In this document: positions 3,001 to 6,000 of the stretch, piece after piece | Layout: each line of letters opens with the position of its first letter | How positions within the stretch are numbered: the stretch's first letter is position 1 | DNA from: a virus | Taxonomy: Duplodnaviria > Heunggongvirae > Uroviricota > Caudoviricetes | IMG/VR virus record: IMGVR_UViG_3300042519_000302 | DNA: 29,794 bases | Reading direction: 5' to 3' (one strand) | Position numbers: made by a program

Positions 3001-6000
3001 ATATCTCCTGTAACAACATCTCATTATACATAGGCAATGAGGGAGCTAATCTAAAGTGATATGATAGAGGGTTCTTAGTAATCTCTAACGTAGAAAGTTC
3101 ATCAACTGATGATATAATTCCTTCAAGGTGAGCAAAATAAGCAAGTTCGTTATCTTGCATCACCTCAGGAAAGAATTTCTTGTTAATTTGCATTAAGACA
3201 AGGTTAATAAGTATTTAGTTTTTGCAGCTTCACCACTTAAGGCATCAGCTAAATTAGCTATATCATGAAATTTATTAGTCTCACCATATGCTTTTAAGTT
3301 ACTAGAGAAGTCCATTAGTGCTGTGACAACTGCATTAGGATCTGTAGCTGTTAATTGTTCTAGTTTAATTGCACCAGGACGTTTACCTGTATAACCCATA
3401 AGCTTCTCAACAACACCATCTTTAAAATCTTGTACATATTCATATAACTTTCCAAGAGCCTTGTGCTGTGCATAACTAGTTGTCTGCCAATGCAATAGAT
3501 GTAGTTGCTCATGAAAATATGTAAGCTTTCCAGCTATTGTTTCCAAGTTTAATTCCCCTGATTTCATCATCTCATCAGGGAATAATGATTTTGCCATGCT
3601 GTTTTAGTTTTATTATCTAGGAATTGTACATGCAAAAGCCCTAATGGCGCGAACATAGTTTGGGAAGGTCTTATCGCTGCCGTCCTGACTGCCAGTGAGG
3701 AAATTCTGGTCCCACGCGAAGATGGTGGCGTACTCCGTAGAACTCCAATAGCCGTTATTCGTAAAACCACCAATAGCTACTCTATTTAAGTACAATTTAT
3801 TTAATTCATCTTGACTAGGTAAGTACCAATCAGAATATCCTCCTTGTGTTAAATCACCACAAAGTCTAGCTGCAATACCTGCTGTAGCACAACCAGCCAT
3901 AATATCTATAGTATTTTGATTACCAGTACCAATAGCTGTACCATCTGCTCCTGCAATTGCTGTTCCAAAACATCCCCATGCTGCTCCTGTTGAAATATCT
4001 GCTATTGTAGCTACTAATCCTTGTTGTAAATTTGAATCATATCCTGGGTCACCTGATTGTAGGATGTATGCAATTTTACCACCTAATGCAGCTTGACCAA
4101 TTGTATAATCTTCAGGACATTCTGCTGGTGCAGCTGTTGTTGTTGTTGTTGTTGTACTTGTAGAAGTGCTTGTACTTGTAGAAGTAGATGTACTTGTTGT
4201 AGTACTTGTAGAAGTGCTTGTAGAAGTGCTTGTACTAGTACTAGTAGAAGACGTAGTTGTAGTGGTTGTTGGAACATAATTACAACACTCATTTGCATCT
4301 ATCTCCACCCAATTACCCACTTGTGGTTTGAATCTTTGTAAGATCAAGCTACCTGCTATGACACGTCCTGTACCATCGTAACGTACATATGCTTTTAATC
4401 TATTGTTGCTATTTGCCATGTTTATTTAATTTTAAGGTGCAGGAGTTGTTGTTGTTGTTGTTGTTGGAGTAGCAGTCGTAGTAGTAGTTGTTGTACTTGT
4501 ACTTGTGCTAGTAGATGTACTAGTAGTTGTGCTAGTGCTTGTACTACTGGTTGTAGTAGTTGTTGTAGGAACGTAATTGCAACATTCATAAGCTGGGATC
4601 TCTACCCACTTACCAACCTTGGGTTTCTTTCTTCTTAAGATTAGGCTGCTTGGAACGATTCTTCCAGTACCATCAAAGCGTACATAAGCTTTGAGAGGGC
4701 GATTAGTATTCTGGGCCATAATTAATAATTTATATTATTGTTTTTTTATATGAAAACATATATCTTTTTTTATATATGTTTAAGTTATTTTGATTACATC
4801 TATTTGTAATTGTACTATAACTAACTAGTAACTCTTTTGAACAATGTAAAGCTGATACAAATTCTAACAGTTCTCCAGTTGCTAAATCTTTTACATATAC
4901 AGTTTTAGATCTTGGATGAATTATTACTTTTCTACGAGCATTTGACATTTTTTGTCTTGTTTCTATTGTATGAGTTATTCCTCTTTGACCTATTCCTCCA
5001 TCAGTTTTATTTAATATAGTAAAGTTTAGATTTTTATATCTTTTAATATGTTCTATTTCTTTACTAAATGCTTCTTCTTTTGTTATATTTCTTTCTAATA
5101 AAGAAAAATGGATTTTTCCTTTTTTAATATCTATAATATTGTCCATCCAAGCATATAGTTCAGGATTACTATTTTTACAGTTATATTTTCTATTATTAGC
5201 ATGTTGTTTCCATCTACCAATAGCATCCCCAGTTACACCAATGTATATATAGTTATCATCTAAATTTGAAGTCAATATATACAGAGAATAATGATTTTCT
5301 GGTAGGTCAACATTTATAACTCCATGATACTCATTCATATTAGTACTGTAAATTATACTTGTTTTTTATTTCTAATAGTTGTTTTACATAGTAATGAGTT
5401 GCATATTTCTTAGACTTCTCATCAGTGCGTACTACATATAGTTGTGTATCTTTAAAAGGATCTTTACCAGCGTGATATGCTCCTTTATAAAAGGCAGGAT
5501 AACCCATTGTGTTCTGTCCTGTAATCCCTGCATTATGTAACAATGTTGTTCTATCTAGCTTCTCTATAGGATCTGAAGACCAACAGAATTCCAATTCAGG
5601 AATGTTCTTTGTTTCTTTCTCTCTAAGCCAAACGTTCCATAGCACAGCCCACATATCTGCACACCAGCTTTGGAACCCTTTGTCTTCATTTTTGAAGAAC
5701 TGTTTGTTTATATTCTGAAGGTAGACACGTATTAATATACAGTCATTCATCACCTTCTTCCAAAACTCACTGTCTATATTTTTAAGGAAGTATTGAGCTC
5801 CTCCTGAATGATCATTGTTAGCTTCAGCTATCTCTCTTGTTATACCCACTAAGCTTGTAAGCTCAGCTAAGACATCTCTAGTCTTATACTCTTCCAGTTT
5901 GTCTGGTAGAACATCTCTGTCTTTACTATCAAAATATGAAGCGTTGATATAACTGTTTGTATCAGACAAGTAGTTTATATCATCATCTTTAAATTTATCT

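Follow-up and report, generated by a model that had tools for sequence, protein, structure and literature searches.

How can a phage gene end in a variable region (VR) of DGR type when the phage has no DGR of its own? The question is raised by one locus in a 29,794-nt stretch of DNA (IMG/VR record IMGVR_UViG_3300042519_000302, here called the window) from an uncultured, putative crAss-like phage. No natural system other than the DGR is known to hypermutate microbial proteins in a targeted way, and a phage is usually taken to benefit from a DGR only by carrying the whole cassette. The locus provides a clean test case, with a DGR-written VR, complete related genomes without the machinery, and VR-limited allele turnover in sister phages. 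We suggest, with a probability of about 0.75, that the window VR is an orphaned member of this known hypermutation system and that the sister alleles are still rewritten by machinery located elsewhere.

Phage genes in the window encode an endolysin (phrog_181), a homing endonuclease, and a giant fibre with collagen repeats. GenBank phage records gave zero matches (megablast of 25 kb, tblastn of the protein, and blastn of the variable region), and the Rfam scan of the window gave zero matches as well.

Target gene and composition of the variable region

The target gene (3613..4419, minus strand, from the ORF list and translation) encodes a protein of 268 aa, and the gene order around it is common to the loci L001/L002, L114-118, and L129-136. 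The N-terminal module of about 50 aa, ending in ECC (4270..4419, minus), is presumably the virion-attachment part; it is kept in L114, and a longer module takes its place in L117. It is followed in the translation by the Thr/Ser-rich stalk (residues 51-97; 4129..4269, minus), which has weak mucin/sialomucin-type Pfam matches below the cut-off and differs in length among alleles. The non-variable part of the lectin-fold head, defined by the AlphaFold model and the fold match, starts at AECPEDY (residues 98-215; 3775..4128, minus), and the VR (residues ~216-262; 3634..3774, minus) was delimited by homology to templates of the DGR family.

The protein matches PF07603 (Lcl_C, Pfam) with an E value of 6.1e-11 and 43.1 bits (cut-off 34.9), over residues 138-260 and profile positions 2-117 of 117. 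The head was modelled with a pLDDT of 94.8, and its top solved-structure match in Foldseek was 8q4e_A, the C-terminal domain of Legionella Lcl (E 3.3e-8, target-normalised TM 0.74), with C-type-lectin-like folds ranking next. This domain is the best structural and Pfam match of the head at 27% sequence identity, and we know of no report of Lcl as a DGR target. According to Pfam, the model, and the PDB matches, the VR sits at the C-terminal end of a C-type-lectin-fold domain. The gene product is predicted to be a small accessory fibre or adhesin, with the lectin head carried on the Thr/Ser stalk.

The initial annotation had pointed to an abrupt rise in GC and an excess of CG dinucleotides over the last codons of the gene, and both were confirmed. 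The GC-rich core of the VR (3634-3762, 129 nt, residues 220-262, TNNGYWSSTE...YVRAIRAF) has a GC content of 0.519, whereas the window averages 0.361 and the 300 nt upstream have 0.37; this value is reached by just 0.18% of the 129-nt segments, the maximum (0.535) lies at the same place, and 10 CG dinucleotides are present against 0.87 expected per 129 nt. General GC heterogeneity was considered and rejected as a source, the other GC peaks (24.9-26.6 kb) being unrelated collagen repeats in the giant fibre gene. Third codon positions are G or C in 29 of the 43 core codons versus 28/219 in the rest of the gene (Fisher p=6.5e-13). The core third positions comprise C 19, T 13, G 10, and a single A (A depletion, Fisher p=1.5e-8), and those of the other 219 codons A 95, T 96, C 16, and G 12. 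The variable codons listed at first as NNC or NNT were correct as given; CCA and AAC before TAT had been omitted from that list, and CCA is neither NNC nor NNT.

Templates and scaffolds of the DGR family

Real DGRs of the same VR family (L097, L105, L107, L108, L137) were used as controls. Mismatches between template repeat (TR) and VR fall at template A in 11-12 of 11-12 cases in L105 (TR at 3044-3164, three VRs), 12/12 in L107, 13/15 in L097, and 15/15 in the target-bAvd-TR-RT cassette of L137; among the four VRs of L108, three have 11-14 mismatches at A and the fourth 13/19. The L097 template (GAG AAC AAT GCT AAC AAC GCG TGG AAC CAG AAT TTC AAC AAT GGC GAC CAG AAC AAC AAC AAT AAG) provided an independent definition of the adenine positions for the window VR. 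At the sites so defined, the window comparisons differ by 41-61% at A-sites and by 1-15% at non-A sites (Fisher p 3e-4 to 5.7e-11). Against VRs whose flanks are 38-49% different, the non-A template positions differ by 1-7% and the A positions by 41-61%, and for these unrelated-flank VRs the enrichment of differences at L097 template-A positions reached Fisher p values of 1.8e-8 to 5.7e-11. Compared with the VRs of unrelated genes (L089/L103), the invariant bases of the window VR differ at 1/76 positions and the flanks by ~42%. The words TATTGGAGTTC, GCGTGG..CCAG..TTTC, TGGC, AAG, and GTTCG.GC are common to the window VR and the TRs and VRs of L097, L105, L107, and L137.

The DGR origin proposed by the initial annotation is thus backed by scaffold bases common with real VR/TR pairs and by allele differences at template-adenine positions. 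The template that it had reconstructed, TATTGGAGTTCTACGGAG-(AAC)5-GCGTGGAACCAGAATTTCAACAATGGCAATCAG-(AAC)3-AATAAG, is nearly that of L097 and equals the one derived from 11-12 sibling alleles. By these sequence comparisons, the segment is a genuine DGR variable region of the DUF1566/Lcl_C (CLec2) class. Its adenine specificity is read from related, non-cognate templates and from sibling alleles, and a few allele differences have no adenine origin: L114 has TTA and ATG, and L136 has a 3-nt indel.

A foreign GC-rich patch of DNA, or ordinary diversifying selection on a binding loop, would need no DGR, since horizontal transfer can yield GC-rich patches and lectin-fold loop residues are often under diversifying selection. 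However, the variation lies at codon positions 1-2 with C or T kept at position 3, the scaffold bases are conserved far beyond the flanks, and the segment matches real TR/VR pairs, with its variable sites being adenine in the real templates. The template and scaffold comparisons effectively refute any reading without a DGR link, which we regard as highly improbable.

We propose that the VR derives from a template of the form ...TATTGGAGTTCTACGGAG (AAC)n GCGTGG AAC CAG AAT TTC AAC AAT GGC AAT CAG AAC AAC AAC AAT AAG ... TATGTTCGCGCCATTAGGGC, the adenines of which would be replaced at random in error-prone reverse transcription. Template origin and adenine replacement would explain why the segment is rich in GC and CpG and why it has NNC/NNT codons and scaffold codons free of A (CGC, GCC, GCG). 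The VR would encode the ligand-binding face of the Lcl_C/DUF1566 C-type-lectin-fold head.

According to Pfam context, Bacteroidota chromosomes contain the closest VR scaffolds: L103 is accompanied by a T9SS Por_Secre_tail and Endonuclease_NS, L098 by a TonB/OMP barrel, L088 by BKACE, L122/123 by T9SS and ribosomal L25, and L139-143 by Avd and then housekeeping genes. The DGR family with this scaffold resides in freshwater Bacteroidota chromosomes, from which we infer a possible source replicon of the phage VR. The family comprises intact target-Avd-TR-RT cassettes and many target-Avd modules without TR-RT, and the latter suggest distributed DGRs already acting at a distance. L140-143 represent one bacterial locus at which the same VR-end/Avd module is attached to different target genes.

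The nearest known counterpart in class is Legionella pneumophila LdtA ('category d'/CLec2: DUF1566, DUF823, Fib_succ_major; PMC5758913), which likewise has a C-terminal VR in a DUF1566/Lcl_C lectin fold, the scaffold YWSS...AW.Q.F..G.Q....K....VR..R, variable codons derived from AAC/AAT, and a small protein with little beyond the domain. The phage target differs from this class in that TR, RT, and Avd are absent from the genomes searched, the VR is followed by six codons instead of stop, spacer, and hairpin, and the carrier is a lytic-type, putative crAss-like phage and not a bacterial lipoprotein.

Search for the machinery and the 3' end of the variable region

The window had been described as free of a template or RT, and this holds both for the window and for G001, a complete relative with the identical VR allele (117,586 bp, CheckV 100%). 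In the window, no second VR copy longer than 24 nt was found besides the VR itself (blastn-short, and a self-blast screened for mismatches biased to A), the TR-type word AACGCGTGGAACCAGAATTTC with at most 3 mismatches matched only the VR, and G001 contains no second copy of the segment. Neither RT (PF00078; L105 and L137 RT proteins) nor bAvd (PF22296) nor a second copy of the segment was detected in the window, G001, G021 (114 kb, 99%), or ~32 other related viral records; the search set comprised the window, G001, G003-G005, G021, and ~30 further related records, and the positive control G040 was detected. With RT, Avd, and TR all missing from the phage sequences searched, the window-strain VR is considered an orphan.

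The search was extended to larger collections. In IMG/VR, the TR-type word AACGCGTGGAACCAGAATTTC was found only in L108, a GC-rich DGR of another lineage, and zero further copies of the window VR 3' end were found there. The metagenome and genome collections were scanned with the VR-type pattern TTCGCGTGG..., which templates, reading AACGCGTGG..., would escape. Short Asn-rich ORFs were considered as translated templates, with none among 40 matches, and the L097 RT has 3566 RT relatives. The N-terminal in-frame templates of P0180, P0229, and P0285 were rejected as cognate, since they end in VRCVRDF or VRAVRD and not in YVRAIRAF. The DGR of L137, reached via P0232, is intact, but its template is related and non-cognate, with 63.9% identity to the window VR. 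L139-L143, reached via the truncated Avd of L096 (the protein cluster of which is a singleton), have the right VR 3' end and target-Avd modules, but without TR-RT.

In alignments, the VR ends in the 3' scaffold TATGTTCGCGCCATTAGGGCTTTT (YVRAIRAF; 3634..3657, minus), an IMH-like, GC-rich end that is nucleotide-identical in many cellular VRs. The family homology in the phage gene ends exactly after GGGCTTTT. Translation and alignment place the tail ACTIPR and the stop (3613..3633, minus) where cellular targets have a stop, an AT-rich spacer, and a GC hairpin after the VR. DNA folding detected no hairpin in the downstream flank (3575..3633, minus; -4.8 kcal/mol, z 0.72); the next gene, DUF5856-like (3193..3597), begins within this flank. 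The best local hairpin after the window VR has -1.0 kcal/mol versus -6.5 to -15.8 at seven cellular VRs, and the conserved spacer of the cellular targets (TAAC.ATTTA.C.ATTT) is absent after the window VR. An IMH and a hairpin or cruciform 3' of the VR are recognition elements of DGRs, and the need for them in this DGR clade is extrapolated from BPP-1.

Allele turnover and possible origins of the presumed orphan variable region

The syntenic locus in sister phages contains at least 6 VR alleles on near-identical backgrounds. The sister alleles come from JGI samples 3300031772, 3300031997, 3300032046, 3300032143, 3300032401, and 3300035659 and from ENA ERZ27247683, ERZ27247725, ERZ27247851, and ERZ27247960. 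L114 and L117 have 3/378 differences upstream, 17/141 in the VR columns, and 0/53 downstream, with 14 of the 17 VR differences at codon positions 1-2; L117 and L135 have 18 differences in 144 VR columns versus 3 in 2857 outside. In the non-variable head, 24 of the 37 differences between the window and L114 are at third positions. Further alleles were detected at the protein level (P0012, P0013, P0014, P0122, P0126, P0165, P0168, P0170), some of them mosaic, since P0013 and P0168 have a common 5' half and L135 and L136 a common 3' half. The lectin head is 100% identical in L114 and L117, the genomes of which are otherwise ~70-90% identical, so that recombination at the target gene appears to be frequent. 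As far as these alignments go, the locus shows recent rewriting across the sister phages; given at least 6 alleles on near-identical backgrounds, new VR versions do reach the phage gene from time to time, by a mode of transfer that we infer below.

The window allele is identical in every copy of its lineage seen; samples with the window strain include 3300044619, 3300042888, and 3300042924. L129-L134 are one clone (0-1 difference in 3 kb), and L001/L002 have 11-13 differences elsewhere in the gene and 0 in the VR, where ~2.7 were expected (P about 0.06), which weakly supports stasis of the window allele. Orphan features of the window strain are its one fixed allele, the lack of machinery in cis, and the lack of spacer and hairpin.

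New VR versions may enter by swapping of VR cassettes, through short-homology recombination or gene conversion with DGR-diversified host or co-infecting VRs and without reverse transcription on the phage DNA; this is possible, and we hold it tentatively. Scaffold blocks of 18-24 nt, identical in phage and cellular genes, lie on both sides of the variable codons, and the mosaic alleles, the shared L114/L117 head, and the joining of different targets to one module in L140-143 are consistent with such swapping, as is the joining of a different 5' gene in L099 to the L089 VR, although L099 is a low-coverage contig that may be a chimera. However, every event needs crossovers confined to very short 3' homology, and donors carrying an identical variable block were found for none of the phage alleles. 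The gene could instead be an active remote target: during infection, a DGR belonging to the host cell, or to a prophage or phage co-resident in it, would copy a template of its own into mutated cDNA that homes into the phage gene, which would lend the phage hypermutation machinery not encoded by itself. The allele number on near-identical backgrounds, the absence of RT, Avd, and TR from two (near-)complete and 32 partial related phage genomes, and the 1/76 scaffold difference from the chromosomal VRs L089/L103 argue for it, as do the frequent target-Avd modules without adjacent TR-RT in those bacteria and the end of the phage tract, which coincides with the end of the TR-VR homology and does not lie inside the VR-specific spacer; a plasmid-borne avd-TR-brt works in trans in Bordetella (PMC5758913). 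We nevertheless find homing in trans doubtful, because the AT-rich spacer and GC hairpin of cellular VRs are missing from the phage locus, the window allele does not vary among the copies seen, the searches yielded no matching template, and L135 and L136 have common 3' blocks but a different 5' block, a pattern not readily made by 3'-initiated homing.

One specific form of homing in trans is that a DGR-less, lytic-type phage retains a tip fitting the template of a distributed chromosomal DGR of its Bacteroidota host, and that this DGR hypermutates the tip during infection, with target-Avd modules at several host loci and the TR-RT elsewhere in the chromosome; this we consider unlikely. Even less probable, in our estimate, is an ordinary phage DGR with a non-adjacent target, unlinked in the genome of this strain or in the sister lineages. 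Phage DGRs can have their targets as far as 50 kb from the RT (PMC5758913), full cassettes occur in 16% of gut crAss-like genus I genomes (PMC7290462), the window and the sister lineages are known from partial genomes, and of the 31-mers sampled, only 53% are common to G001 and the window. Against this, RT, Avd, and TR are all absent from G001 (100% complete, with the window VR allele) and G021 (99%), the sister-lineage contigs lack an RT over the stretch between -9.4 kb and +7.2 kb relative to the target, and the TR-type word of the family was found in no AT-rich phage contig of IMG/VR. The suggestion of the initial annotation that the gene is a remote (trans) target or a relic is supported by these results, with the window strain leaning to an orphan, and the orphaned VR with sister alleles rewritten from elsewhere is the reading that we prefer.

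Incomplete DGR cassettes are known from gut crAss-like phages, namely crAssphage LMMB and genus I AlphacrAssvirinae (Morozova et al. 2020, PMC7290462), where 80 genomes have VRs, only 30 have TRs, and full DGRs are present in only 15/91; there, too, VRs persist after other parts of the cassette are gone. In those phages, the target is a tail-collar fibre with the TR-RT directly adjacent and remnants are left, whereas here no TR/RT remnant is present in any allele, the VR is of the DUF1566/CLec2 class, and the alleles still differ between near-identical sister phages. The TvpA paralogues of Treponema denticola (PMC5758913) likewise have VRs far from the TR-RT, in many dispersed targets with one scaffold, but known remote targets are on the replicon of the DGR, whereas here the target is in a phage and the nearest scaffolds are on bacterial chromosomes; it has been argued that phage DGRs should have no targets that they cannot take with them (Wu et al. 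2018, PMC5758913). With the Mtd/avd/TR/brt system of BPP-1, the locus has in common a phage lectin-fold receptor-binding tip, diversification at template adenines, and a GC-rich VR 3' end; the fold subclass is different, and BPP-1 has a full cassette and, following the IMH, a hairpin, both of which are lacking here.

If a host DGR writes the VR or the phages harvest host VRs, receptor-binding diversity would be coupled to host retroelements in phages of freshwater Bacteroidota systems, which is not yet described; under the host-DGR reading, a virus would make cross-replicon use of the diversity generator of its host. If the cassette has decayed or is unsampled, the locus would be one more orphan VR of the type already reported in gut crAss-like phages (PMC7290462).

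The initial annotation had remarked that the additional Cys in ACTIPR might pair with the Cys at the start of the domain, and homologues lend weight to this remark: a Cys before the domain is present in 37/37 homologues with the tail Cys versus 6/71 without it (raw counts, uncorrected for the relatedness of the homologues). Cys264 thus probably clasps Cys101 in a predicted disulfide.

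DGR signature of the GC-rich gene end

The segment at 3634-3762 has a GC content of 0.52 (0.36 for the window and 0.37 immediately upstream), the highest anywhere in the window, and 10 CpG dinucleotides were detected against 0.9 expected. The third positions of its 43 codons are C (19), T (13), G (10) and A (1), whereas the remaining 219 codons of the target gene have A 95, T 96, C 16 and G 12 (p=6.5e-13 for G/C and p=1.5e-8 for the loss of A). The GC, CpG and third-position counts confirm the abrupt GC-rich switch with 10 CG dinucleotides that the initial annotation described for the last ~43 codons. 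Elsewhere in the window, GC peaks of 0.49-0.52 lie at 24942-26637, inside the ORF 19735-27642 (minus strand); they were rejected as DGR-like patches, being collagen triple-helix repeats of a 2635-aa fibre gene (Pfam Collagen, E 5.8e-48).

Pattern scans keyed on the invariant bases of the variable region (VR) detected its scaffold, at nucleotide level, in numerous contigs, several of them complete DGRs that served as controls. Mismatches between template repeat (TR) and VR fell on template adenines in 11-12 of 11-12 cases at L105 (TR, reverse transcriptase (RT) and three VRs), 12/12 at L107 (TR, RT, two VRs), 15/15 at L137 (target, accessory protein bAvd, TR, RT) and 13/15 at L097 (TR, partial RT, one VR); at L108 (TR, RT, Avd, four VRs) 11-14 mismatches in three VRs and 13/19 in the fourth were at template A. 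The L097 template reads GAG AAC AAT GCT AAC AAC GCG TGG AAC CAG AAT TTC AAC AAT GGC GAC CAG AAC AAC AAC AAT AAG, and the template deduced earlier from the window alone is nearly identical to it.

With adenine sites defined independently by the L097 template, we compared the window VR with VRs of divergent genes, the remaining lectin domain of which is 38-49% different in nucleotides. Only 1-7% of the non-adenine sites differ (1/76 for the cellular VR L089) versus 41-61% of the adenine sites (Fisher p 1.8e-8 to 5.7e-11). The scaffold is conserved far above the flanks, which means that the compared VRs derive from almost the same template. Comparison of 36 related viral loci showed the GC-rich patch to be lineage-specific, with a fresh VR signature in the window lineage and L003/L004, a partly decayed one in L011, L032, L035 and L119, and ordinary AT-rich codons in the others. 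These three agreeing lines of evidence (control DGRs, conservation at non-adenine sites and lineage distribution) demonstrate, at the level of sequence, that the segment carries a DGR signature, and they bear out the DGR origin proposed for 3634-3762. The window VR falls in the DUF1566/CLec2 'category d' VR class of Wu et al. (PMC5758913).

The N-terminal PF07603 of some database RT proteins (P0180, P0229, P0285) arises from a template repeat that shares the reading frame of the RT (…YWSSSENENNTNNAWNQNFNNGNQNNNNKDNNNYVRCVRDF…); such TR-RT fusions are a handy route to templates via protein databases.

Missing cis machinery and cellular relatives of the VR

A second copy of the segment, a TR-type word, an RT and an Avd were all sought in the window and none was found. 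The related genome G001 (117,586 bp, CheckV 100% complete), whose VR is identical to the window's, holds the segment in one copy; RT and Avd were found neither there nor in G021 (114 kb, 99% complete) and 32 further related viral records, and the positive control G040 was detected in each RT/Avd search. No RT was called between -9.4 and +7.2 kb of the target in the sister lineages, which share the syntenic locus. The IMG/VR search found the template-type word of this VR family only in the GC-rich L108, and no second copy of the window VR 3' end. The cognate template was not found in the window, in G001 or, by template-type word, in IMG/VR; the metagenome and genome collection scans covered a pattern matched by VRs only. 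The cis machinery is absent from the window locus, as had been noted for template and RT, and the complete relative G001 lacks it as well. Together with the DGR signature, this supports the earlier interpretation of an orphan DGR VR, and we infer that, in this strain, the window copy is orphaned.

The VR scaffold has a cellular home. The closest relatives of the window scaffold lie on cellular contigs with Bacteroidota hallmarks: a T9SS sorting domain and Endonuclease_NS (L103), a TonB-type barrel (L098), BKACE (L088), T9SS and ribosomal protein L25 (L122/123), and Avd followed by tRNA-Ser or housekeeping genes (L139-143). One intact cassette of this VR family, L137, belongs to an ENA assembly whose accession neighbours those of assemblies with several sister phage alleles. 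At many cellular loci (L096, L139, L140-143) a target-Avd module stands without an adjoining TR-RT. Decayed or split cassettes were observed at L096 3518-3652, with Avd cut to 45 aa behind the VR, and at L139 472-1175, where an intact 111-aa Avd is followed by tRNA-Ser and housekeeping genes in place of TR-RT. L140-L143, from different samples, have an identical module in common (e.g. L140 3829-6103: VR 3' end, spacer, hairpin, 94-aa Avd and a convergent 268-aa membrane protein), while each has its own target gene upstream (369 aa, 1129 aa, others); the module represents a hotspot of recombination or, alternatively, a distributed DGR.

Nine cellular VRs were folded. In seven, a conserved AT-rich spacer, TAAC.ATTTA.C.ATTT, comes after the stop codon, with a GC-rich hairpin (-6.5 to -15.8 kcal/mol) behind it at about +21 to +34; the other two (L089, L098) have no hairpin stronger than -2.8. 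The spacer follows VRs of this family, not their templates. At the window phage locus spacer and hairpin are both absent (best hairpin -1.0 kcal/mol) and the reading frame continues six codons beyond the VR. Spacer and hairpin may serve target recognition in this DGR clade, or in part act simply as a terminator. The longer form TAAC.ATTTA.C.ATTT.AC.ATTT was observed after VRs of L093, L094, L096, L097, L101, L123, L137 and L139-L143, and a related spacer after those of L107 (GC-rich, Pseudomonadota MAG) and L113.

On a Bacteroidota chromosome (L122/L123; L123 899-2886), two tandem PTL_trimer+Lcl_C genes carry one fresh GC-rich VR (0.52 vs 0.41) and one decayed VR, with strong hairpins after both; no RT was found within the fetched DNA (about 6 kb on one side). 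In L099 (1-480) a short lipoprotein-like ORF is fused to only the last third of a DUF1566 domain. From the VR onwards the DNA matches L089 exactly, save three codons at the 5' edge of the VR, and L099 is either a recombinant at that border or a chimera from low-coverage assembly.

Allele turnover and proposed routes into the phage gene

The sister phages match the window in gene order, ACTIPR tail and downstream gene, and their allele turnover is limited to the VR. L114 and L117 differ at 3/378 columns upstream in the domain, 17/141 in the VR and 0/53 downstream; L117 and L135 differ 18 times within the VR and 3 times elsewhere; and a four-contig 3.0-kb alignment has variable columns at 24/144 in the VR vs 32/2857 outside. 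At least six protein-level alleles were detected, the window's own not counted. The L136 VR (gene 1325-2275) has one codon more than L135 in the first variable block, which spans 5-10 codons in cellular VRs; the (AAC)n block length therefore differs between templates, or by slippage.

No sign of VR rewriting was seen in the window strain (L001/L002, L129-L134). L129-L134 are one clone (0-1 difference over 3 kb). L001/L002 have 148-152 differences from the window in about 2630 compared positions, with 11-13 differing sites elsewhere in the target gene and 0 in the VR, a weak indication of stasis (P about 0.06).

New alleles would reach the phage gene by one of three routes, each with evidence both ways: VR-limited recombination with DGR-diversified VRs, retrohoming in trans from a DGR of the infected cell, or supply from an unsampled phage-borne DGR. 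Two observations speak for direct homing into the phage gene: the tract coincides exactly with the extent of TR-VR homology, and no donor with identical variable codons was found. Two speak against it: the spacer and hairpin are missing from the phage locus, and L135 and L136 are mosaic alleles with common 3' blocks and an unlike 5' block.

Orphaned VRs are already published for gut crAss-like genus I, with VRs in 80 genomes, TRs in 30 and full cassettes in 15/91 (PMC7290462), and the kind itself is known. Less ordinary here are the lack of any cassette trace in complete related genomes, alongside continued turnover of the sister alleles, and the location of the nearest scaffold relatives on bacterial chromosomes. 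The interest of the locus could rise if a host retroelement does write into the phage gene.

The target protein and its neighbourhood

The ORF list and translation place the target gene at 3613..4419 (minus strand, 268 aa), with 3634-3762 encoding residues 220-262. The protein consists of an N-terminal module of ~50 residues with ECC at its end, a Thr/Ser stalk (residues 51-97), an Lcl_C/DUF1566 domain (PF07603, 43.1 bits vs cut-off 34.9) and the six-residue tail ACTIPR. An AlphaFold model of the head (residues 96-268, 51 homologues as input; mean pLDDT 94.8) best matched, among solved structures, the Legionella Lcl C-terminal domain (8q4e, E 3.3e-8), followed by a Bacteroides fimbrial protein and many C-type-lectin-like folds. 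In the retrieved homologues, kinship ignored, all 37 with the tail Cys have a Cys at most 12 residues before the domain start, versus 6/71 of those without it. This co-occurrence fits the suggested pairing of the two cysteines, a predicted Cys101-Cys264 clasp.

The neighbours are phage-like: endolysin, GIY-YIG homing endonuclease, glycosyl- and sulfotransferases and the 2635-aa collagen-repeat fibre. The GIY-YIG gene (4730-5338, minus strand), two genes upstream of the target with a local GC of only 17-19%, is present in L129-L131, L133 and L134 and missing from L001/L002 and L132, and is therefore a polymorphic insertion.

In many contigs of the sister lineage, the orthologues (P0163, P0164, P0167, P0169, P0171 and P0172) were called as 148-150 aa and end within the poly-Thr stalk (…TTTTQPR); such short calls could reflect a gene split or cut short at its run of Thr codons, or else artefacts of assembly or frameshift. 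L003/L004 (L003 7088-11572) and L084 (5818) carry the same lectin head, fresh VR included, mid-way in a 1495-aa fibre protein, the VR there being internal, not C-terminal; at its N-terminus this protein is similar to the giant fibre of the window (68% over 325 aa).
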